Shown here: one piece after another, positions 1-18,704 of the stretch
Layout: every line of letters starts with the position of its first letter
How positions within the stretch are numbered: position 1 is the first letter of the stretch
Assembly (NCBI GenBank): GCA_050015515.1
Contig: JBEKBG010000001.1
Span: forward strand, 86,814 to 150,813
From: Minisyncoccia bacterium
Lineage (GTDB): Bacteria; Patescibacteriota; Minisyncoccia; UBA6257; 2-01-FULL-56-20
DNA: 64,000 bases
Reading direction: 5' to 3'
Position numbers and translations under genes: made by a program
The notes under the pieces: generated by a model
The model's database searches: none
The model's input: the letters and a program-made list of their open reading frames with translations, nothing else
Told to the model about the DNA's origin: nothing

Positions 1-461
1 TCTATTTGAAAGGCCGATGCGCTTAACTGATCTCATCATAAAAACATGGTAAGAGGAAACTTTATTGGTGCGGCGATCGTTGCGATCATCTACACGGTCT
101 ATCTTGTATGGAACCCCCTTCCATCGCGCCCGCAAGAAGCAATAGTGTTGGTGGTTCTTAATGCGTTGACCATCGTGTTGTTGTTTTTTGCGTTCAAATA
201 GAAAGAAGCGAAATAATAAGCATTTACCTGGTGTATGTCGTACTGCTCTTGCGGGAGCCGGGCATTATTCTCCCAGCGGTTGATCAGCGGCGAGCCCGCA
301 TCGTTCGACAGCCCGGTCAAGATGCCGGGCGAGTCATACGAGCCGCGTTGCCGCGAACATTTCATTTTGCCAGGGAGGCCGAAGGGGTCGGCGAGTGCGG
401 CAAAAATGTAAAAAAGAGCCAGAGAGCGGGGGCTCTCTGGCTTGTGAAATGGCGGCATGTA

Positions 462-806
462 TCATGCCGGCCACTCTTGTGTTTGTAAAGAAGTGCCGAT
501 GGCCGCGGAGTTGTGGCCGGATTTTCTGGCTCGGTTCGCTTCGGTGCCGGTCAGCGTTTTTACCTTACTGGAAAGTTTGTTGGCGAGTCGCGGGGTGGGC
601 GCTGGCAATTTTTGGAGCTGCTTAAGCGCAGCGACGGTCTGTGCACCGCCGACAGCTCCTTCGAAGCGCCCGCTCCATGAGTTGAGAAGCCGTGGAGCGT
701 CCGTCGAATTATTGCCGAGCGCCGCAAGATACTTTTTACGGGCGTCTTCGATGGTGGTCTGCCGTTCGGCATCAAGAACAGAAAATGGTTCGTAAAACTT
801 TCCCAT
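462..806 (-). CDS. hypothetical protein (about 114 aa), start chosen at MGKFYEPF with AGGAAG RBS
   Basis: Six-frame ORF 462..956 minus strand; internal ATG preceded by AGGAAG 6 nt upstream; no recognisable domain. Confidence 0.35.
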   Translation of the reverse strand: MGKFYEPFSVLDAERQTTIEDARKKYLAALGNNSTDAPRLLNSWSGRFEGAVGGAQTVAALKQLQKLPAPTPRLANKLSSKVKTLTGTEANRARKSGHNSAAIGTSLQTQEWPA

Positions 807-877
807 GGGAAACTTCCTCTCGGTTGGAAATGAACAACAAGCAATAAATATAAGTTCAACCTCGATAATAGTCAACT

Positions 878-2167
878 CTACAGCGTCACGAACATCGCCA
901 CGGCCGCGGCGGCCATCAAGATAAACGTCGCCCAGACGAAAACTTTTGAGAGCCATCCACTCTTATACTCGCCCATGATCTTTTTGCTCGCCGCCATGCG
1001 CGCGATGATAAAGATAAGAGGCACCGCCGCCACGCCGTTGAGGACGGCGGTAAAGACAAGCGCCTTTATCGGGTTGATGCCGATGAAGTTGATCATCAGG
1101 CCGACGAGCGTGGCGATGGTGATAACACCATAGAATCCGTGCGCGTGCTTTAATTTAAGATTCAGCCCCTCCTTCCAGTTGAACGTTTCGGAAAGTGCGT
1201 ACGATGCGGAGGCGGAGAGCACCGGCACGGCAAGCAGGCCGAGCCCGATGACGCCGATGGCGAATAACACTTTTGCGATATAGCCTGCGTTGGGAAATGT
1301 GTGCACGAGCGGCTCGAGCGCTTTCGCCGCGTCCGCCGTGGTGGCGATGTTCGTAAGTCCGTGCGCGTTCAGCACCGTCGCCGCCACAATGATGATGCAC
1401 CATGTCGCCACTTCGGATGAGAGCATGCCAAGAAAGTTATCCCACCGCAGACGGCTCATGAACGATTTCGTCGGCTTTGTTGCGCCGCTCTTTATCAAAT
1501 GATGCTCCTCTTCTTCCTCCACTTCTTCCGACGCTTCCCAGAAGAACATATACGGCGAAATGGTGGTGCCGAGCACGCCGGTGATAATAAACAAGAACGC
1601 AAAGCTGAATTGCACGTGCGGCAGGAACGTTGCGCGCAGGATCGTACCCCACGGCTCATGGACGAGGAACACGGTGAGCGGATAGGAAATGAGCACGAGA
1701 GCCAGCCACTTTAAAATCTTTGCGTAATTTTTATACGAAACAAAAATTTCAAGCAGCAAAATGAGTGCGGTGAAGAAGAGCGTGAGCACGGTAAAGTTCA
1801 CCGGGATGATGAGCGCCGCGGCCGCGCCCATCGCGCCAAGGTCGGCGCCGATGTTGATCGTGTTTGCGATGAGGATGAGCGCCAACAGACCGTACAGAAT
1901 TTTGCGGTTGTAATTTTCTTTGACGACCGCCGCGATGCCTTTGCCCGTCACCGCGCCAATGCGTGCGCACGCCTCCTGGATCGCCACCATGAAGGGGAGC
2001 AAGAAGAGCGCGGTCCACAACTGTCCGTAACCGAACTGCGCGCCGGTCTGGGTGTAGGTGGCGATGCCCGACGGATCATCATCCGCCGCGCCAGTGATCA
2101 AACCCGGGCCAACGATCTTGAGGAGATTCTTTGTCTTCTTGCCGAACTTTGCCATAGATAAGAGCAT
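878..2167 (-). CDS. mntH: Nramp family divalent metal cation (Mn2+/Fe2+) transporter
   Basis: Polytopic membrane protein with Nramp consensus stretches (GPGLITGAADDDPSGIATYTQTGAQFGY, MVAIQEACARIG); start placed at MLLSMAKF inside the longer ORF. Confidence 0.85.
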   Translation of the reverse strand: MLLSMAKFGKKTKNLLKIVGPGLITGAADDDPSGIATYTQTGAQFGYGQLWTALFLLPFMVAIQEACARIGAVTGKGIAAVVKENYNRKILYGLLALILIANTINIGADLGAMGAAAALIIPVNFTVLTLFFTALILLLEIFVSYKNYAKILKWLALVLISYPLTVFLVHEPWGTILRATFLPHVQFSFAFLFIITGVLGTTISPYMFFWEASEEVEEEEEHHLIKSGATKPTKSFMSRLRWDNFLGMLSSEVATWCIIIVAATVLNAHGLTNIATTADAAKALEPLVHTFPNAGYIAKVLFAIGVIGLGLLAVPVLSASASYALSETFNWKEGLNLKLKHAHGFYGVITIATLVGLMINFIGINPIKALVFTAVLNGVAAVPLIFIIARMAASKKIMGEYKSGWLSKVFVWATFILMAAAAVAMFVTL

Positions 2168-2378
2168 TATAGCAGCCTTGCGTCGGATTTGACAGTTTTT
2201 GTGATATATGGTAGACTGCGCATGCACCTTAAAAACTGATTTCACCGTAGCGCCCAAGGCATCTTTTAGGAGTAAAAAAAAGACGCTTTGCGCGCTGCGG
2301 TGAAACAATCATAAAGCGATGAAACGCTTTTGCAGAAATGTGAATCCGTTCAAGTCCACCCCAGCAAGGAGAAACACC

Positions 2379-3011
2379 ATGAGCACCAGCGTCATTAGTG
2401 TGGAACAGCGCTTCGCTCTGCTCGCCGCCATGGGAGCCAACATTGACTGGGATTCGCTCACGATTGAGCAGATCCAGGCCGGTATCAAGAATCCTCAACT
2501 GACCGGAAAGCAGGCAACCCTGTTCATCCGGTCCGGCTATTCTGTGCAGATCGGCGAGCATTTCCGCGAGACCGGCGACGTGAGCATTCAACTCCCGGCA
2601 CTCAAGCGGCCGACGCTCAAGGAACTCCAGGCGAGCAACGACTGGATCAAGTCCATCGAGCGGGACACATCCACCGAGGAAGCGGTAACGCTCACATTCG
2701 CAACAGTGCTCGTGCCCGATGACGGCAGTTCCATCGACGGCAAGGAATATGAGAAGCGGATTGCGCTCAAACACGATTCTCTTCTCGGCTTCCAGCACCG
2801 CCAGTGGCTTCTCGAACACCAAGCAGAGTTCCCGGAGTTCATGGCGCTTCTCGGAAAGTGCTACGTCGACTTCCCGGGAATCGTCGTGGTCAGCCGCGGC
2901 GGCGATCGCCGCATCCCGTACTGCCTTCGGGACGGCTCACGCTGGGGCGACAGCTGGAACTGGCTCAGCGGCGGCTTCGATGTGGACGGACGCATCGCTG
3001 TCGGCAAGTAG
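2379..3011 (+). CDS. DGR target protein 1 (variable protein with C-terminal VR)
   Basis: C-terminal 150 aa paralogous to the ORF at 4897..5559; last 40 codons coincide with VR1; RBS AAGGAGAAACACC precedes ATG at 2379. Confidence 0.8.
   Translation: MSTSVISVEQRFALLAAMGANIDWDSLTIEQIQAGIKNPQLTGKQATLFIRSGYSVQIGEHFRETGDVSIQLPALKRPTLKELQASNDWIKSIERDTSTEEAVTLTFATVLVPDDGSSIDGKEYEKRIALKHDSLLGFQHRQWLLEHQAEFPEFMALLGKCYVDFPGIVVVSRGGDRRIPYCLRDGSRWGDSWNWLSGGFDVDGRIAVGK
2884..3004 (+). repeat. DGR variable repeat VR1 (121 bp)
   Basis: Aligns gap-free with TR 3329..3449; 16 mismatches, every one at a TR adenine (A->G, A->C, A->T); identical 21-bp GC-rich 3' end GGACGGACGCATCGCTGTCGG. Confidence 0.85.
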
Positions 3012-3076
3012 CAATCACTTGGGTCCTCGTGCGCTTGGTCTTTTGACCTTGAGCACTTGGGCCCTTTTCTTTTCTT
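3012..3076 (+). repeat. Conserved post-VR element, copy 1 (direct repeats CACTTGGG, short GGTC-TTTT-GACC hairpin, GGGCCC followed by T-rich run)
   Basis: About 85 percent identical to 5560..5631, which follows VR2. Confidence 0.4.
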
Positions 3077-3328
3077 AAAATACTCGTATGCTGATGGTGG
3101 ATAGTAGATCGTTGCGCATGGCTACGGCTCTGCGCGGTCGAACTCTGCGATAGCATCTGCCGGAGCGGGAGCGGATACGTCTTTTCCCGGCGTGCGATGT
3201 TTATCTGCTTACTTATTATTGCTACTTGGTGCGGAGAATTAGGGAATTATTTATAGATAGAGATTCCGAATACGATTCAATCCCAAGAATGATCGAGGGA
3301 TGGTGGCGCAGGTGATTCCCCGCACATT

Positions 3329-3449
3329 TCGTGGTCAACCGCGACGGCGATCGCAACATCCCGTACTGCAATCAGAACGGCTCACGCTGGGACGACAACT
3401 GGAACTGGCTCAGCAACGACTTCAATGTGAACGGACGCATCGCTGTCGG
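3329..3449 (+). repeat. DGR template repeat (TR), 121 bp, rich in AAC codons
   Basis: Near-identical to VR1 and VR2 except at adenines; lies between target 1 and the RT; not part of a complete gene (the local ORF 3300..3620 is spurious). Confidence 0.85.
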
Positions 3450-3470
3450 AAACTGGCAATAATGGTTTTA

Positions 3471-3842
3471 TCATTGGCGATGCCCGGCGGGTTCGCTGCG
3501 GCTCATGGTTTGCCGCAGCCACCCGCCGAGCATTTTGCCGACCTCTTCCAGCGGTTCGGAAAGTGTGATGAATTTTCCGTTATCGATAGCTTTGATCTCC
3601 CAGGAAATCTGGATGAATAATTTTAGGAGATCTAATTTTGCGGAAGCCTTTTGTAAATAGGGGACTTTCTGTTCTTTCGTGAGGTGGCTTGCAAGGAATA
3701 TCAGTTCGGTTGTTTCAATAAAGAGATCATCAATCTTCTGGCCGAGCGTAAAGCGCGAAGTTTTTGCCATGTTCGGCATGAATTCATGCCAAACCTTATA
3801 AACTTCGATAAGACGGACAACAACAGGAACGTTAGTTTTCAT
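3471..3842 (-). CDS. avd: Avd-like accessory variability determinant (four-helix-bundle / 23S rRNA IVS protein family)
   Basis: About 123 aa; C-terminal EPLEEVGKMLGGWLRQ and overall helix pattern typical of TIGR02436-like four-helix-bundle proteins; encoded antisense to the RT with start codons overlapping (CAT 3840..3842 versus ATG 3841..3843). Confidence 0.55.
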   Translation of the reverse strand: MKTNVPVVVRLIEVYKVWHEFMPNMAKTSRFTLGQKIDDLFIETTELIFLASHLTKEQKVPYLQKASAKLDLLKLFIQISWEIKAIDNGKFITLSEPLEEVGKMLGGWLRQTMSRSEPAGHRQ

Positions 3843-4857
3843 GAAGCATAGGTTAACTAAAAAACGTGGCGATATTGCTTCTCTCGAAAACCTGCTTTTG
3901 GCGTGGGAGGAATTTTTAGCGGGCAAAAAATCAAAGCCGGACGTTCAGGATTTCAAAATGCGTCTCATGGAAGAAATAATATCACTCAAAAATGATATTG
4001 TCAATGGCGCGTACCGGCATGGAGGGTACGAAGCGTTCAATGTATCGGATCCCAAGCCGCGGAACATCCATAAAGCGATTGTGCGCGACCGCCTGTTGCA
4101 TCATGCGATCTATCGCGTCCTCTGTCCGTTCTTTGATAAAACCTTCATCACCGATTCGTACTCGTGTCGCATCGGGAAGGGTACTCACAAAGCCCTCGAG
4201 CGGTTCGATGTTTTTTGCCATAAGGTCGGGCGCAACAATACCCGCACCGTCTGGGTGCTAAAATGCGACCTTCGGAAATTTTTTGCCAGCATTGATCACG
4301 CGATTTTACTTGAGACACTCTCGAAATACATTGTTGACCCGGAGATAATGGATCTTCTGCGGGAGATTATCGAAAGTTTTTCTTCGACGCGCGATGGTGT
4401 TGGTTTGCCGCTTGGCAATCTTACCTCGCAGCTCTTCGTGAATATTTATATGAACGAATTCGATCAATTCGTAAAACATGTGCTTAAAGAAAAATATTAT
4501 ATTCGCTATGCGGATGATTTTGTGATTCTTTCGGAATCAAAAATTTGGCTAGAGCATCTGCTTCCCAAAATTCGAACATTTCTTGGCGAGCGACTGAAGC
4601 TCGATCTTCATCCAAAGAAAGTATCCATAGAAACGTTGGCGTCCGGCATTGATTTTTTGGGCTGGGTCATATTCCCGGACCATAAAGTGCTTCGCACCGC
4701 AACGAAGCGGCGAATGGTCAAAAGATTAGAAAATATTGTTTCGTCGGGAACGGTCAGCTCTTATAGGGGGCTTTTAAAACATGGAAACGCGCACCAACTT
4801 GCGGAGCGGTTTCTCCCTGCCGGCGGTGAGTTGACGGATTGGCTAGATATATGGTAA
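3841..4857 (+). CDS. Diversity-generating retroelement reverse transcriptase
   Basis: 338 aa RT with no maturase or endonuclease domains; motif 4 reads LGNLTSQ (DGR-specific SQ instead of SP); YADD catalytic motif; N-terminus aligns with the Bordetella phage bRT pattern. Confidence 0.9.
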   Translation: MKHRLTKKRGDIASLENLLLAWEEFLAGKKSKPDVQDFKMRLMEEIISLKNDIVNGAYRHGGYEAFNVSDPKPRNIHKAIVRDRLLHHAIYRVLCPFFDKTFITDSYSCRIGKGTHKALERFDVFCHKVGRNNTRTVWVLKCDLRKFFASIDHAILLETLSKYIVDPEIMDLLREIIESFSSTRDGVGLPLGNLTSQLFVNIYMNEFDQFVKHVLKEKYYIRYADDFVILSESKIWLEHLLPKIRTFLGERLKLDLHPKKVSIETLASGIDFLGWVIFPDHKVLRTATKRRMVKRLENIVSSGTVSSYRGLLKHGNAHQLAERFLPAGGELTDWLDIW

Positions 4858-4896
4858 TATATGTCCAGGTGTTAAATTGAAAAAGGAGAAACCGCC

Positions 4897-5559
4897 ATGC
4901 CAAAACATGGAACCATCTCAACCAAATTCCCTGGCTGGTACATTCAGCTCCAGACCGATGTTCTGCTTCAGCTGCCACGCCCCGATGAGCTTTCGGAGCG
5001 CGTGGCCGACAGATTGCATAACAACCGCGGCTTGATGAAGAAAGCCTTGCGAGCCGCCCTATGTCCGCCCGTAACAAAACCCGCCGTCGAAACGATCTTC
5101 ACGGAGCTTTTCCGCGAGACCGGCGAACTGAGCATTCAGCTTCCGGCGCTTAAGCGTCCCACGCTTGGCGAGACCCAGTCCAAGTACGATTGGATTAAGT
5201 CCATCGAGCGGGATACGTCGACCGAGGAGTCAGTGACACTCTCGCTGGTGACGGTGCTTGCCGCTGGAAGCACTGCTTCTATCGGCGGCAGGGAATACGA
5301 GTTGAGGATCGCTGAACATCTCGACTCTCTTCTCGGTTTCCAGCACCGCGAGTGGCTGCTTGAGCACCAGGCCGAATTTCCGGAGTTCATGGCTCTTCTC
5401 GGAAAGTGCTATATTGACTTTCCCGGAATCGTCGTGGTCAACCGCGTCGGCGATCGCCTCATCCCGTACTGCAATCCGAACGGCTCACGCTGGGACGACT
5501 TCTGGCACTGGCTCCGCGACGGCTTCAATGTGGACGGACGCATCGCTGTCGGCAAGTAG
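4897..5559 (+). CDS. DGR target protein 2 (paralog of target 1, C-terminal VR)
   Basis: Shares FRETG..SIQLPALKRPTL...GRIAVGK with 2379..3011; nearly identical RBS context AAGGAGAAACCGCC-ATG. Confidence 0.8.
   Translation: MPKHGTISTKFPGWYIQLQTDVLLQLPRPDELSERVADRLHNNRGLMKKALRAALCPPVTKPAVETIFTELFRETGELSIQLPALKRPTLGETQSKYDWIKSIERDTSTEESVTLSLVTVLAAGSTASIGGREYELRIAEHLDSLLGFQHREWLLEHQAEFPEFMALLGKCYIDFPGIVVVNRVGDRLIPYCNPNGSRWDDFWHWLRDGFNVDGRIAVGK
5432..5552 (+). repeat. DGR variable repeat VR2 (121 bp)
   Basis: 11 mismatches to the TR, all at TR adenines; no non-adenine differences. Confidence 0.85.
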
Positions 5560-5631
5560 CAATTAACTTGGGCTCTTGTGCGCTTGGTCTTCTTTCGACC
5601 TTGAGCACTTGGGCCCTTTTTCTTTTCTTCT
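5560..5631 (+). repeat. Conserved post-VR element, copy 2
   Basis: Paralogous to 3012..3076. Confidence 0.4.
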
Positions 5632-14657: not shown

Positions 14658-14759
14658 CAACTAATCCCGCGGGGCGCAATGCGTTCCATGGGATTTTTCT
14701 TTGAAAATCCGCTAAAACCTGCTATTTTAATAGGAATGGCTGATAAAACTCCACATCAT

Positions 14760-17700
14760 ATGCCGCATTTTCTGGAAGGCGAGATCAAACTTCCCGAGAT
14801 GGAGGAAAAAGTGCTCGCGTTTTGGGACGAGCATAAAACGTTTGAAAAAAGTTTAGAGCAGACCGCCGACGGCAAACCGTTCACTTTTTATGACGGGCCG
14901 CCGTTCGCGACGGGACTTCCGCATTATGGGCACTTACTCGCGTCCACCATTAAAGACGTCATCCCGCGCTATCAGACGATGAATGGCCGCTTCGTGCGCC
15001 GCCGGTGGGGATGGGATTGCCACGGGCTGCCGATCGAAGAGGTCGTCGAGCGCACGCTCGGCATCTCCGGGAAAAAACAGATCGAGGAGATCGGCGTGAA
15101 GACGTTCAACGAGACGTGCCGGAACATGGTCCTGCAGTATGTTTCCGAATGGCGACAGATGATCCGCCGCATCGCGCGCTGGGTGGATTTCGATGATTCG
15201 TACAAGACGCTCGACACCGATTTTATGGAATCGGTGTGGTGGGGCTTCAAGCAGATGTACGATAAGGACCTGATCTACGAAGGTCGCAAAGTGTTGCTCT
15301 ATTGCCCGCGCTGCGAGACGCCGCTCTCCAACTTCGAGGTGGCGATGGATAACAGCTATAAGGATGTGACGGAGGAGTCGGTGACGGTGAGGTTCCACCT
15401 GAGGGCCGGCCAAAAATTTGGCGGGAAATATGAGACGAAAAATACCGCGTACATTCTCGCGTGGACGACCACACCGTGGACGTTGCCTGGAAATGTCGCG
15501 CTGGCGGTTGGGGAGCATATTTCCTATACCTCGCTTCGCATCAAAGGCGCCGAAGGGTTATATATCGTCGCAAGTGAGCTGATAAAAAAAGTTTTTGGAG
15601 ATCAGGAGATTGAGATTGTGCATGATGATATGAAAGGAGCTGATCTTGTCGGCCTCGAATACGAGTCGTTATTTGATGTCCCTGCGATGCAATCAAAGAA
15701 GTCCTACAAAGTATATCCCGCCGATTTCGTCACCACCGAGGATGGCACCGGCATCGTCCATACTGCCGTCGTCTACGGCGAAGACGACTATGCGCTCGGC
15801 GTGAAGGTCGGCCTGCCTGTGGTGCCGATGCTCGACGATCGTGGCTTGTTCAACGATAAAGCTCCAGAATTTTTGCGCGGACAATATTTTAAAAAAGGCG
15901 ACAAACTGGTGATCGAGGATTTAGAAAATCGCAAACCGGAAAGTCTGCTTTTCAAGAAAGAAAAATATACGCACTCATATCCGCATTGCTGGCGGTGCGG
16001 CACTGCGCTCTTCTATAACGCCATCCCGGCGTGGTTCGTGAACATCCAAAAGATAAAGCCAGGGTTGCTCAAAACGAATCAGGAAGAGATGAACTGGTTC
16101 CCGGAACATCTTAAGAATGGGCGCTACGCGAAAAGCGTAGAGGCGGCGCCGGACTGGAACATTTCGCGCAATCGCTATTGGGGCAATCCGGTGCCGGTGT
16201 GGAAGTGCGCCGGATGCGATAACGTGGAGGCGGTGGGTAGCATGGAAGAACTTTCCCAAAAGGCGGGAGGTGCCAAAAATAATTATTGGGTGATGCGCCA
16301 CGGCGAGGCGGAGAGCAATATGTTCGACATCATCGATTCCGGCCAGCGGAAATATCTGCATTTGACGCCGCGCGGGAAGGAACAGGCGCTTGCTTCTGCG
16401 GAAAAATTCAAGAAGGAGCTCGCGAAAGAGCATAAAAAGATCGACCTCATTATCGTATCGGACATCACGCGCACGATGGATACGGAGCATATCGTGGCGA
16501 CGGTCTTGGGGGGGGAGAGGGAGCTCGTGGATAAGCGATTGGAGGAGATCCATCTCGGGCCGACATTCACCGGCTATCGTGATGAAAAATATCTGGAAAT
16601 GTATCCTACCTATGAGGCACGTTTCGAGAAGCGGCCGGAAGGCGGGGAGTCGTTGCGCGATGTTCGCGCGCGAATGTGGGGATTTTTAAAAGACTGCGAG
16701 GAAAAATACGAAGGAAAGAACATTCTTCTCATCTCGCACGAATATCCGATCTGGATGATGACCCATGTTGCGGAGGCGTGGAGTGAAAAACACGCGATCG
16801 AGGAAGAGGAAAAATGCGAGGGGAGATTCATCAATTTTGCGGAGGTTCGGAAATTGGATTTCAAGGCGGTGCCGCGGAACGACACTGGCGAGGCGGATCT
16901 CCACCGACCGTACATCGACGACATCACCTTCCCGTGCGCAAAGTGCGGCGGCGTGATGAAGCGCACGCCGGAGATCTTCGATTCGTGGATCGAAGCGGGC
17001 TCAATGCCGTTCGCGGAATATCACTATCCGTTCGAGAACAAGGAGGAATTCAAGAAACATTTTCCTGCGCAATTCGTGGCGGAGTATATCGCGCAGACGC
17101 GTGCGTGGTTCTATCTATCGCACGTTGTGTCGTACATTTTGTTCGGGCACGCGCCGTTCGAGAACGTGGTGACGACGGGAACGATCCTCGCGGAGGATGG
17201 TTCCAAGATGAGCAAGTCGAAGAATAATTTTCCCGATCCGAAATTGCTCATCGATAAATTCGGTGCGGATAGCCTGCGGTTCTATTTGATGAACTCCGTC
17301 GTGATGCAGGCGGACAATTTGAACTTTTCCGAGAAGGGCGTTGAAAGCGTGTATCGCAAAGTGGGATTGTTGCTGACGAACGTCTATAAATACTTTGCCA
17401 CGTATCGTGGGGAAGTTTTGGGCGAGCCGAGCACAGCTGCCGGTGATGAAAAGATTTCCGGAGACGAGAACATTCTCGACCAGTGGATCACGGCGCGGAC
17501 GGAAGAGCTCGTGGACGTCGCAACGCGCTCGCTCGATACATACGACACTGTTCACGCCACGCGTGCGATCCAGGAATATGTCGACGATCTCTCGACGTGG
17601 TACTTGCGCCGTTCGCGCAAACGCAAGGACGCAGGATTTTTCAAAACCATGCAGGCGTCGCTTTTGACCACAAGCCGCGTACTTGCGCCGTTCATGCCAT

Positions 17701-18299
17701 TCCTCGCGGAAGCGATCTATCTGGAGCTTGCCCCCGCGGATGGTGCCGGTTCGGTGCACTTGGAGGCGTGGCCGAAGACGGAATTTTCGCTATCGGAGGG
17801 AGATAGGAAAAAAATGATGGAAAGCATGAAGGAGGTGCGGGGTTTAGCGAGTCTAGGTCTCGCGCTTCGCGCGGCGACAAAAATAAAAGTTCGCCAGCCG
17901 CTTGCGTCTATGAAGATAGGAGTAAATATTGGAGAAGAATTCAAAAAGATCCTTGCCGAGGAGGTGAACGTGAAAAAGATTATTTACGAAGCGGGGAGAG
18001 AGGATGTTGTGCTCGACACAGAGATCACTGCCGCCCTGCGCGAGGAGGGTCTGCTTCGCGAGGTGGCGCGCATGTTTCAAGAGTTGCGGCAGAAAGCTGG
18101 GCTTGAGCCGAAAGATAAGATCGTGGCGATGATGGAACTGCCTGCGGGTGCAAAGAGCGCGATTGAAAATAACGAAGCTGTTTTCAAAGCTGACATCGGT
18201 GCGACGGCGGTGGAATATGCCCGCAGCGATAAATTTACCGCCGAGGAAATAACAAAGCTCGAAGGTCAGGAGGTCTGGGTGGCGATACGGAAAAATTAG
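14760..18299 (+). CDS. ileS: Isoleucine--tRNA ligase (type 2-like) carrying an inserted histidine-phosphatase (phosphoglycerate-mutase-like) domain
   Basis: PFATGLPHYGH (HIGH), KMSKS, CP1 editing domain, CxxC zinc knuckles. N-terminus MPHFLEGEIKLPEMEEKVLAFW parallels Thermus IleS; alternative in-frame starts at 14679 and 14736. A roughly 200-aa RHGEAESN-containing insert sits at about 16263..16889. Confidence 0.85.
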   Translation: MPHFLEGEIKLPEMEEKVLAFWDEHKTFEKSLEQTADGKPFTFYDGPPFATGLPHYGHLLASTIKDVIPRYQTMNGRFVRRRWGWDCHGLPIEEVVERTLGISGKKQIEEIGVKTFNETCRNMVLQYVSEWRQMIRRIARWVDFDDSYKTLDTDFMESVWWGFKQMYDKDLIYEGRKVLLYCPRCETPLSNFEVAMDNSYKDVTEESVTVRFHLRAGQKFGGKYETKNTAYILAWTTTPWTLPGNVALAVGEHISYTSLRIKGAEGLYIVASELIKKVFGDQEIEIVHDDMKGADLVGLEYESLFDVPAMQSKKSYKVYPADFVTTEDGTGIVHTAVVYGEDDYALGVKVGLPVVPMLDDRGLFNDKAPEFLRGQYFKKGDKLVIEDLENRKPESLLFKKEKYTHSYPHCWRCGTALFYNAIPAWFVNIQKIKPGLLKTNQEEMNWFPEHLKNGRYAKSVEAAPDWNISRNRYWGNPVPVWKCAGCDNVEAVGSMEELSQKAGGAKNNYWVMRHGEAESNMFDIIDSGQRKYLHLTPRGKEQALASAEKFKKELAKEHKKIDLIIVSDITRTMDTEHIVATVLGGERELVDKRLEEIHLGPTFTGYRDEKYLEMYPTYEARFEKRPEGGESLRDVRARMWGFLKDCEEKYEGKNILLISHEYPIWMMTHVAEAWSEKHAIEEEEKCEGRFINFAEVRKLDFKAVPRNDTGEADLHRPYIDDITFPCAKCGGVMKRTPEIFDSWIEAGSMPFAEYHYPFENKEEFKKHFPAQFVAEYIAQTRAWFYLSHVVSYILFGHAPFENVVTTGTILAEDGSKMSKSKNNFPDPKLLIDKFGADSLRFYLMNSVVMQADNLNFSEKGVESVYRKVGLLLTNVYKYFATYRGEVLGEPSTAAGDEKISGDENILDQWITARTEELVDVATRSLDTYDTVHATRAIQEYVDDLSTWYLRRSRKRKDAGFFKTMQASLLTTSRVLAPFMPFLAEAIYLELAPADGAGSVHLEAWPKTEFSLSEGDRKKMMESMKEVRGLASLGLALRAATKIKVRQPLASMKIGVNIGEEFKKILAEEVNVKKIIYEAGREDVVLDTEITAALREEGLLREVARMFQELRQKAGLEPKDKIVAMMELPAGAKSAIENNEAVFKADIGATAVEYARSDKFTAEEITKLEGQEVWVAIRKN

Positions 18300-18302
18300 C
18301 CG

Positions 18303-18704
18303 TTATTCTTCATCGCTCTCCGCTATAAATCCGGCACGCATCTCGAGGCGCGTCACTCGTCCGTTGAAGCGATCGATGACCTTATGAATGCCGCGCATTT
18401 CGCCATGGAACGCGTCGGCGTCTTTTTGTATCTGATGTGTTATAAATTCGATCCGGGCCGTCCTTTCTTTAACCTCCTGCATATCTATCTTGATCCCACC
18501 AACGTGGTATTCTAATGACCCCACCCGTTTTTCGAGCATATCAAATCGCGAATCGAATTTTGCCTCGAGAGAATCAAATTTTCCGTCGAACCTCGCATCA
18601 AGCGAATTGAACTTCGCATCAATCTTATTGATCCGTTCGGTAAGAACGGCCGCAATGCGGTTGATGTTATCTATGACGTCTTGGAGCGTGATTCTCTTTT
18701 CCAT
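18303..18704 (-). CDS. hypothetical coiled-coil protein with tandem (A/G/S)(K/R)FDS(L/M)(D/E) repeats
   Basis: AKFNSLDARFDGKFDSLEAKFDSRFDMLEKR repeats; start at MEKRITL with GGGAG RBS. Confidence 0.45.
   Translation of the reverse strand: MEKRITLQDVIDNINRIAAVLTERINKIDAKFNSLDARFDGKFDSLEAKFDSRFDMLEKRVGSLEYHVGGIKIDMQEVKERTARIEFITHQIQKDADAFHGEMRGIHKVIDRFNGRVTRLEMRAGFIAESDEE

Follow-up and report, generated by a model that had tools for sequence, protein, structure and literature searches.

The region 2379..5559 of the 64-kb window, the whole stretch of DNA analysed here, almost certainly holds a complete, chromosomally encoded and currently active diversity-generating retroelement (DGR) of the CPR type with the "B3" architecture. 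Its parts follow each other in a complete DGR layout, namely target gene 1 with variable repeat VR1, the template repeat (TR), a reversed avd gene, the reverse transcriptase (RT) gene and target gene 2 with VR2 (Table 1). The DGR is genuine, and it is a textbook case of a layout already known for CPR rather than a new type of system. According to Wu et al. 2018 (PMC5758913), architecture B3 consists of TR-(avd)-RT and is found in 90% of CPR DGRs. A preliminary description of this DNA had recognised the DGR with correct coordinates and content, and the tests that it had set against itself, concerning the repeat mismatches, the affinity of the RT and the invariance of the VRs, favoured a DGR when they were run. 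It had also called the element complete; the avd gene on the minus strand had been overlooked.

Table 1. Features of the DGR locus (positions are those of the window)
Feature	Position	Strand	Evidence or remark
Promoter-like site, target gene 1	2189-2217		
Target gene 1, 210 aa	2379..3011	+	ORF and RBS; alternative ORF start 2319
VR1, variable repeat of target 1	2884..3004	+	15 TR mismatches, all on TR adenines
IMH-like 3' boundary of VR1	2987..3016	+	GC-rich invariant part, then CAAGTAGCAAT
Imperfect GC-rich hairpin after VR1, then T-rich run	3021..3064	+	fold z=-2.2 (DNA), -3.6 (RNA)
Conserved non-coding 5' leader of template RNA	3205..3328	+	alignment of 18 loci
Leader segment TATTATTGCTACTTG, candidate primer strand	3214..3228	+	pairs with TR 3' end and flank 3450..3464
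TR, template repeat	3329..3461	+	template part 3329..3449, IMH*-like end to about 3461
avd, accessory variability determinant, 123 aa, pI 9.2	3471..3842	-	Pfam bAvd PF22296
Long stem-loop directly 3' of TR, ~21 bp, 9-nt loop	3479..3534	+	overlaps avd 3' coding end (other strand)
DGR reverse transcriptase, 338 aa	3841..4857	+	Pfam RVT_1; PDB 8ub7_A E=2e-47; BPP-1 brt E=8e-47
Candidate avd promoter TTGACA-17-TATTAT with extended TG	3976..4004	-	inside 5' end of RT ORF
Promoter-like site, target gene 2	4831-4860		
Target gene 2, 220 aa	4897..5559	+	ORF; C-terminal domain as in target 1, N-terminal region different
VR2, variable repeat of target 2	5432..5552	+	11 TR mismatches, all on TR adenines; IMH-like end to 5564
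Hairpin after VR2, then T-rich run	5570..5616	+	homologous to post-VR1 hairpin

The 121-bp template part of the TR aligned without gaps to both VR1 and VR2, as had been described. For VR1, 15 differences were found within these 121 bp instead of the 16 claimed; the sixteenth is TR A3450 > C, one base beyond the repeat as it had been delimited. The count of 11 differences for VR2 was reproduced. Every difference was located on a TR adenine (15/15 for VR1 and 11/11 for VR2) and none at the 91 non-A positions of the alignment. When the 30 TR adenines were compared with these 91 other positions, the hypergeometric probability of such a restriction was P=2.9e-11 for VR1 and 4.3e-8 for VR2. The substitutions were 12 A>G, 2 A>C and 1 A>T in VR1, and 4 A>T, 4 A>C and 3 A>G in VR2.

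The TR is situated outside any target gene, with a 43-codon ORF (3331..3462) running through it. Each VR makes up the final ~40 codons of its target ORF. No further VR-like copy was detected in the 64-kb window. The richness of the TR in AAC codons was borne out, with 7 AAC and 2 AAT among 40 codons, and the TR adenines were distributed over codon positions 1, 2 and 3 as 12/16/3, so that 28/31 fall at position 1 or 2. The positions of VR1 observed to vary extend from 2893 to 2986. Towards the 3' end, the GC-rich segment GGACGGACGCATCGCTGTCGG was indeed identical between VR1 and VR2. The synonymous TR adenines A3435 and A3450 showed no variation among VR alleles. Because C was found at the latter position in 3/3 known VR alleles despite the change being synonymous (GGA>GGC), A3450 > C is more likely a difference between IMH and IMH* than a product of mutagenesis. 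Downstream of 3449 the TR also differed from the VRs at the non-A positions C3453 (G in the VRs) and G3455 (A), and the homology stopped at about 3461, matching the expectation for IMH versus IMH*.

Natural alleles indicated that the element is currently active, with ongoing mutagenic retrohoming. The metagenome contig L001 carried a second VR1 allele with 18 differences, all on TR adenines, which excluded invariance of the VRs. Outside VR1, this contig showed no difference from the window over the 3,284 positions compared, which include TR 3329..3417. Two VR1 alleles in genomes with identical 3,284-bp flanks therefore require very recent mutagenic homing. The same allele was also present on a second contig. 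An assembly chimera is an unlikely source of it, since 8/18 of the variant bases occurred in neither the TR nor the VR1 of the window and the combination of bases differed from VR2. In the sister lineage L022, the VR orthologous to VR2 likewise had two alleles (P0005 and P0087), and 15/15 of their residue differences were in TR-adenine codons. For the window strain itself one VR2 allele was found. This single allele would suit a fossil DGR, a relic in which repeats and genes persist but the VRs no longer change. So would the clear decay of several members of the clade (L028, L055, L068, L069 and L064), where the RT is frameshifted or TR and VR mismatch at many non-A positions. However, all ORFs of the window element are intact, there are zero non-A mismatches within the mutagenesis zone, and a frozen repeat would not account for the two VR1 alleles; we consider a fossil very improbable.

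The RT has the motifs LGNLTSQ (residues 191-197) and YADD (residues 223-226) and lacks a maturase or endonuclease domain, all as previously described. Among solved structures, its best match was PDB 8ub7_A, the Bordetella phage bRT, with 165 bits over the full length, whereas group II and retron RT chains reached at most 78 bits (1e-20 to 5e-21), ~87 bits lower. The residues K29, F66, R74 and I76 (bRT numbering), the [I/L]GxxxSQ motif and the catalytic aspartates are kept, and the phage relatives of the RT are DGR carriers. These comparisons support placing the RT with the Bordetella phage DGR RT and not with group II or retron RTs. In libraries without a DGR model, the best matches were the group II model TIGR04416 and DRT/UG models, which might suggest a group II intron, retron or DRT/UG RT lying beside paralogous repeats that diverged by drift or gene conversion. 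These NCBIfam scores were far under the curated cut-offs, with 141.6 bits against 300 for TIGR04416, 77.4 against 200 for Drt3a and 61.9 against 235 for retron_St85. The Rfam scan assigned no family to the DGR region and detected no intron or retron (msr/msd) RNA in the window. Furthermore, drift of paralogues cannot put 26/26 differences on template adenines, so the probability left for an RT of another class is negligible.

The avd product matched Pfam bAvd PF22296 with 48.8 bits, above the gathering cut-off of 40, and NCBIfam DivGenRetAVD with 65.5 bits, below the equivalog cut-off of 80. The gene is convergent with the TR, and its start codon overlaps that of the RT gene by 2 bp in divergent orientation. 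Its candidate promoter had a consensus score of 11/12, the top site of the region, and a site with 9-12 of 12 matches was found at the equivalent position in 11/17 clade loci. The position and strand of avd between TR and RT, together with the gene order and strands of the other parts, were the same in ~28 related loci from Patescibacteria MAGs, and adenine-specific divergence was found in at least 20 TR/VR pairs among the related loci. The window element resembles the CPR-type DGRs (Wu et al. 2018, PMC5758913; Roux et al. 2021 clade 2, PMC8144416) in its Minisyncoccia/Patescibacteria host, its chromosomal, cell-encoded location, the reversed avd between TR and RT, the C-terminal VR and the small targets without TM segments or recognisable conserved domains. 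For the CPR-restricted clade 2 in the RT tree of Roux et al. 2021 (PMC8144416), the likeness is with the published description, in host, cellular context and domain-less targets. We found no essential difference from these DGRs; in the window element and its three closest relatives, the RT gene is followed by a further target, a paralogue of the first.

CPR bacteria are the richest and least understood DGR hosts. To our knowledge, prokaryotes have no other known system for the targeted hypermutation of proteins than DGRs, and we know of no mechanistic DGR work to date on any layout but that of phage BPP-1. The window locus adds no new principle and is an unusually clean natural example, in which two paralogous targets use one template and natural allele pairs give direct evidence of the element firing in the environment. 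Its relatives, numbering at least 28, are enough to read the architecture of the template RNA from covariation, and the clade could serve as a model for cDNA priming and IMH recognition in the B3 layout. It could also help to identify the ligands of CPR targets that lack both known domains and signal peptides, a point explicitly left open by Roux et al. 2021 (PMC8144416).

In target 1, a helical N-terminal region precedes the conserved C-terminal domain, and VR1 encodes the final ~40 residues of that domain. As had been noticed earlier, ~150 C-terminal residues are shared by the two targets (75% identity over the last 151 aa, with unrelated N-termini), both end in GRIAVGK, and their RBS contexts are nearly identical (AAGGAGAAAC..CCATG upstream of both). 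Target 2 is identical to NCBI MGD1003049.1 from a Minisyncoccia MAG, and in its AF2 model the C-terminal domain had a pLDDT of 95-98. This domain belongs to a family of at least 586 clusters at 50% identity that is absent from Pfam. Pfam and NCBIfam gave no match for either target or for 65 diverse members of the family, and no sequence match was obtained with known target domains (FGE-sulfatase, DUF1566, Mtd-like and others). The family profile produced only noise against PDB sequences, and a Foldseek search of a target against PDB and BFVD found nothing. The similarity of the domain to the C-type-lectin-like fold was weak, and the targets differ from the C-type-lectin-fold variable proteins Mtd, TvpA and archaeal AvpA in having no significant sequence or fold match to them. 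The domain shared by the targets is divergent and possibly C-type-lectin-like. Sequence prediction detected no signal peptide, lipobox or TM segment in either target. They are small proteins, apparently either cytoplasmic or non-classically exported, and their function would be the binding of ligands.

The following mechanism is proposed. An RNA would be transcribed from the + strand, comprising the structured ~125-nt leader, the TR and a region antisense to avd. An RT-Avd complex would bind this RNA, probably via the stem-loop just 3' of the TR, and reverse-transcribe the TR with misincorporation opposite adenines. In either target gene, the cDNA would then take the place of the homologous 3'-terminal VR, the acceptor site being marked by the GC-rich IMH and a downstream hairpin. 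In this way a C-terminal surface of ~35 residues on both targets could take about 10^16 different forms.

The stem-loop after the TR had an MFE of -40.8 kcal/mol (z=-6.9). RNAalifold on the raw MAFFT alignment recovered the outer stem alone, as the inner stem was not alignable by sequence, and each locus was therefore folded separately; the stem-loop formed in 17/19 clade loci. The outer stem was 89% paired and had compensatory changes. Folding was more stable on the + strand in 8 loci and on the - strand in 10. An Avd-binding stem-loop just downstream of the TR has been published, and the element class is predicted in 207/278 Avd-containing DGRs; the stem-loop of the window is probably the corresponding element of the DGR RNA.

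Upstream of the TR, the leader contained the invariant block TTGCTACTTGGTG and two hairpins with covariation, 3243-3247:3263-3267 and 3303-3308:3321-3325. Pairing in these hairpins reached 95% and included 5 compensatory pairs; their covariation was 0.242 vs 0.137 (0/500 shuffles). The sequence ahead of the leader showed no clear promoter. The leader segment 3214..3228 complements both VR ends perfectly, and at the VR1 boundary CAAGTAGCAAT formed 11/11 Watson-Crick pairs with leader 3218..3228. The strand abuts the last potentially templated base and fits the IMH better than the IMH* in 17/22 comparisons. It also covaries with the TR flank and with the non-coding VR flank, and has a conserved C.C mismatch against IMH*. 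In these respects it carries both published primer hallmarks, from which a role in priming may be surmised. In B3/CPR-type DGRs, the primer strand for cDNA synthesis, which would afterwards also direct the RNA-linked cDNA to the IMH, could have moved to the 5' leader; we put this forward tentatively and rate it as rather doubtful. It fits because the strand covaries with both flanks, complements the IMH and is mismatched against the IMH*. If true, the primer:template duplex would close a ~230-nt loop around the TR, and a single duplex could both prime and stop cDNA synthesis.

A different reading, which could equally well prove right or wrong, is that the duplex between leader and TR end serves as a structural bracket (compare the avd:Sp 'cPRT Stop' of BPP-1) or reflects a DNA inverted repeat, and that priming occurs downstream of the TR, for instance near 3535..3541. 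The BPP-1 primer is located downstream of the TR, and according to Handa et al., many DGRs are predicted to form 'Stop' duplexes between upstream and downstream sequence. In the window, TR 3454-3459 pairs with 3535-3540 directly after the stem-loop, in the BPP-1 topology and with a conserved 4-bp core. However, this duplex was 74% paired, its conservation is confounded by avd coding (VGKMLGGW), and the two primer hallmarks are those of the leader strand. A separate search for a BPP-1-like 'cPRT Stop' duplex, between 60-70 nt upstream of the TR and 160-220 nt after the stem-loop, gave long RNAduplex pairings with non-significant z-scores and ungapped helices of >=7 bp at positions that were not conserved, and this candidate was dropped.

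Over its full length, the RT of the window has 33% identity to that of the DGR of Bordetella phage BPP-1 (mtd-avd-TR-brt). Both systems also have an Avd homologue and mutagenesis specific to adenines; in both the IMH is GC-rich, a hairpin follows the VR and a stem-loop lies just 3' of the TR, and in both an RNA strand pairs with the 3' end of the TR and fits the IMH better than the IMH*. This asymmetry of the BPP-1 primer strand (PMC5703328) was reproduced in our computed check. As it had already been described and interpreted by Naorem et al. 2017, the asymmetry of the leader was dropped as a new insight into IMH recognition. The window element differs from BPP-1 in being cellular and not phage-borne, in having two targets, which are not Mtd-like, and in its avd, which is on the opposite strand downstream of the TR, so that antisense-avd sequence replaces the BPP-1 'spacer'. 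The IMH-matching strand lies ~100 nt upstream of the TR in the 5' leader, whereas that of BPP-1 is in the downstream spacer.

Hairpins were found after VR1, after VR2 and after the VRs of most clade loci. The one following VR1 is a candidate for the DGR target hairpin, for the terminator of target gene 1, or for both.

The region at 2379..5559 contains the elements attributed to it in the preliminary description, and an avd gene on the opposite strand can be added to that account. As judged from sequence comparison, the element is a real, complete and active diversity-generating retroelement (DGR) of the published CPR/B3 type. This type was already described by Wu et al. (PMC5758913) and Roux et al. 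(PMC8144416), and the element itself will not surprise specialists; its value is that of a clean, demonstrably active example with relatives enough to dissect the B3 template RNA.

Features of the DGR and its surroundings
Feature	Position	Strand	Remarks
Target 1	2379..3011		
VR1	2884..3004	+	aligned to TR without gaps
Hairpin and T-rich run after VR1	3021..3064		conserved, imperfect
Leader	3205..3328		about 125 nt upstream of TR; non-coding, strongly conserved
Leader segment TATTATTGCTACTTG	3214..3228		pairs with TR 3' end and flank, 3450..3464
TR	3329..3449	+	gap-free three-way alignment with VR1 and VR2
avd	3471..3842	-	123 aa, basic, pI 9.2; Pfam bAvd
Stem-loop, about 56 nt	3479..3534		directly 3' of TR; -40.8 kcal/mol, z=-6.9
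RT	3841..4857	+	338 aa; Pfam RVT_1
Candidate avd promoter	4004..3976	-	TTGACA-17-TATTAT plus extended TG; 11/12 matches, best in region
Target 2	4897..5559		
VR2	5432..5552	+	aligned to TR without gaps
Hairpin and T-rich run after VR2	5570..5616		conserved, imperfect

The 30 adenines of the TR take all 26 differences from VR1 and VR2 (hypergeometric P = 2.9e-11 and 4.3e-8, respectively), and no substitution of the kind named beforehand as speaking against a DGR was found at the 91 non-adenine positions. VR2 carries the expected 11 differences in 121 bp (4 A>T, 4 A>C and 3 A>G). For VR1, 16 had been claimed, all on TR adenines; the placement was correct, while the number within the 121 bp is 15 (12 A>G, 2 A>C and 1 A>T). 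The sixteenth, A3450 > C, lies one base outside the repeat, and since the equivalent positions 3005 and 5553 are C, fixed across all three known VR alleles, it more probably represents a difference between the IMH at the VR 3' end and its TR counterpart, IMH*, than mutagenesis. Past A3450, mismatches at non-A positions begin (C3453/G, G3455/A) and the homology stops near 3461, which appears to be the expected IMH versus IMH* pattern. A3435 and A3450 are both synonymous third-position adenines (GGA, Gly), and the equivalents of A3435 (2990 and 5538) are likewise fixed, as A, in the three alleles. Because A3435 and A3450 are invariant among alleles, the 3' limit of information transfer or mutagenesis was placed at about 3431-3435, apparently within the GC-rich IMH. 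The TR is, as described, rich in AAC codons (7/40, with AAT at 2/40), and 28 of the 31 adenines in its reading frame occupy codon positions 1 or 2, allowing about 10^16.6 protein variants. No additional VR-like copies were found in the 64 kb window. Clade-wide, A>G outnumbered every other substitution class in 23 of 26 TR/VR pairs, VR1 (12/15) among them, and the window VR2 showed an even mix (3 G, 4 C, 4 T); an excess of A>G could reflect misincorporation bias of the RT or selection for Gly, Asp or Ser codons.

A second allele of target 1 (P0014/P0085) occurs on two contigs in the 90%-identity cluster of this protein. When contig L001 (JGI metagenome 3300038648) was compared at the DNA level with positions 1..3417, it was identical to the window at all 3,284 positions outside VR1, comprising 2,318 bp upstream, the remaining gene, the intergenic region and TR positions 3329..3417. 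The 18 differences all lay in 2893..2986, each at a TR adenine, so VR1 is not invariant; invariant VRs had been named in the preliminary description as a finding that would refute a DGR. At 8 of these 18 positions the L001 base was absent from both the TR and the window VR1, and the combination of bases was distinct from VR2 too, making an assembly chimera unlikely. The target 2 orthologue of the sister lineage L022 has two alleles, P0087 and P0005, with 15 residue differences, all within residues 182-213 and all in codons where the TR of that lineage has adenine. Both allele pairs indicate that mutagenic homing is recent or ongoing, and that the clade makes use of both target positions.

The closest solved relative of the RT was 8ub7_A (328 aa), matched over its full length with E=2.3e-47 and 165 bits, as compared to at most 78 bits for the top group II or retron chains. 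We take 8ub7_A to be the Bordetella phage bRT because its residue numbering matches the bRT-Avd-RNA cryo-EM preprint; the aligned residues coinciding with those named there are D138, I181, G182, Q187 and D215/D216. In tblastn, BPP-1 brt matched the window RT with an E-value equal to that of 8ub7_A. K29, F66, R74 and I76 are found at the same positions as in bRT, and LGNLTSQ and YADD are also retained, in agreement with the DGR-type RT originally proposed. Group II, retron and DRT identities were rejected, NCBIfam model scores being far under the cut-offs. The Avd product scored 48.8 bits with Pfam bAvd, over the threshold of 40, and 65.5 with NCBIfam DivGenRetAVD, under the cut-off of 80.

The avd gene converges on the TR, its stop codon lying 10 bp from the TR end, and diverges from the RT gene with a 2-bp overlap of start codons (CATG, 3840..3843). 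This overlap leaves no intergenic room for divergent promoters, which must therefore sit within the coding sequence of the opposite gene or further upstream. The candidate avd promoter lies within the RT ORF, about 130 nt upstream of avd, and its position is kept in 11 of 17 clade loci. Such a minus-strand promoter-like site inside the RT gene suggests that avd transcripts are probably antisense to the TR-RT RNA. The CATG overlap also occurs in loci L022, L024 and L069; elsewhere in the clade the two genes lie about 30-40 bp apart.

An identical copy of target 2 is recorded at NCBI as MGD1003049.1, in a Minisyncoccia MAG (CPR/Patescibacteria). Housekeeping genes flank the element (Nramp, cold-shock protein, ArgRS, an IleRS-like synthetase, RNase J and iPGM), indicating that the DGR is chromosomal and cellular. 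Among 70 related loci fetched, about 28 share the order target(+) - TR(+) - avd(-) - RT(+), with RT identity down to 52-66%, and a second target after the RT was present solely here and in the three nearest relatives. At least 20 TR/VR pairs of these loci were adenine-specific, with 10-25 mismatches at A and 0-2 elsewhere. Decay was observed in L028, L055, L064, L068, L069 and L016/L059, where 12-37 TR/VR mismatches fall on bases other than adenine and/or the RT gene is broken across reading frames; the clade thus holds live and dead elements.

The elements of the template RNA were defined by comparative inference. The structure of the stem-loop following the TR was kept in 17 of 19 loci despite differing inner-arm sequences, its outer stem being 89% paired with compensatory changes. 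It matches the Avd-binding stem-loop predicted just downstream of the TR by Handa et al. in 207 of 278 Avd-containing DGRs, CPR included, and is a candidate Avd-binding element. On the opposite strand it overlaps the last ~20 avd codons, and folding energies gave no apparent strand preference. The leader contains two covarying hairpins with 95% of cells paired and compensatory changes at five pairs (covariation score 0.242 vs 0.137, reached by 0/500 shuffles), whose G.U pairs fit a plus-strand RNA. The hairpins after the VRs may serve as DGR target hairpins, as terminators, or in both roles. In the window and other loci they consist of unusually regular 4-6-bp helices with symmetric 2-nt internal loops between them, and a CTTGG motif recurs in them as well as within the invariant leader block CTACTTGG.

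With registers fixed from independent alignments, the leader segment and the TR end had 76.5% of cells paired, compared to 27-62% with the partner slid. Both sides had changed at seven pairs (covariation score 0.222 vs 0.172, reached by 4/500 shuffles), and the leader covaries with the non-coding VR flank too. The VR ends CAAGTAGCAAT are perfectly complementary to the core of the segment, and in most loci this core forms 10-11 of 11 Watson-Crick pairs with the VR end, whereas the duplex with the TR end is interrupted by a conserved C.C mismatch and includes a G.U pair. Of 22 comparisons, 17 favoured the VR end over the TR end as partner. The same asymmetry was seen for Sp47-56, the primer strand of BPP-1, with 9 Watson-Crick pairs and 1 G.U against the IMH and 6 Watson-Crick, 1 G.U and 3 mismatches against the TR. 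This asymmetry is not new, since Naorem et al. 2017 had noted it for BPP-1 and proposed that IMH DNA pairs with the cDNA-linked RNA primer, explaining homing directionality. We infer that the CPR leader segment is a candidate primer strand, upstream of the TR rather than downstream. Priming could instead start from a downstream pairing like that of BPP-1, to which we give an even chance; a weak pairing of this kind is present between 3454-3459 and 3535-3540.

At the C-terminus, the targets (210 and 220 aa) are paralogous as proposed, with 75% identity over the last 151 residues, unrelated preceding parts, a common ribosome-binding context (AAGGAGAAAC..CCATG) and the shared end GRIAVGK. Neither matched Pfam or NCBIfam, and no TM-like or signal-like hydrophobic stretch was seen in either (maximum KD19 1.5). 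A profile of the target domain searched against 1.84 billion representatives retrieved 586 clusters at E<=1e-3 and 160 at E<=1e-30, nearly all of them 150-230 aa long and carrying the domain at their C-terminus; 0 of 65 diverse members had a meaningful Pfam match. AlphaFold2 modelled the domain (residues 70-220) with pLDDT 95-98 and with its last four beta-strands encoded by the VR. We read the domain as divergent and putatively CLec-like, the fold expected in the preliminary description.

Many loci hold a homologue of the target domain but lack both RT and avd within 7 kb (L002, L005, L007, L009, L013, L018-L021 and others), including two loci, L010 and L021, in VMFS01 (Parcubacteria Gr01-1014_30). 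Such homologues could serve as remote targets for a DGR at another site in the genome, or they may be paralogues that are not diversified. Three family members, L009, L011 and L014, come from MAGs whose labels are Acidobacteriota, Gammaproteobacteria and Nanoarchaeota, the last of which is also the label of P0068; the remaining members are Patescibacteria. These labels reflect either binning errors or a spread of the family outside CPR.

Elsewhere, the sole tandem repeat in the window (18550..18589, period 21, 1.9 copies, 84% matches) is probably insignificant. Between its catalytic and anticodon-binding parts, the IleRS-like class I aminoacyl-tRNA synthetase at 14679..18299 (+; 1,206 aa; tRNA-synt_1, Anticodon_1, DUF5915) has an inserted His_Phos_1 (PGAM-like histidine-phosphatase) domain, which spans residues 537-703.
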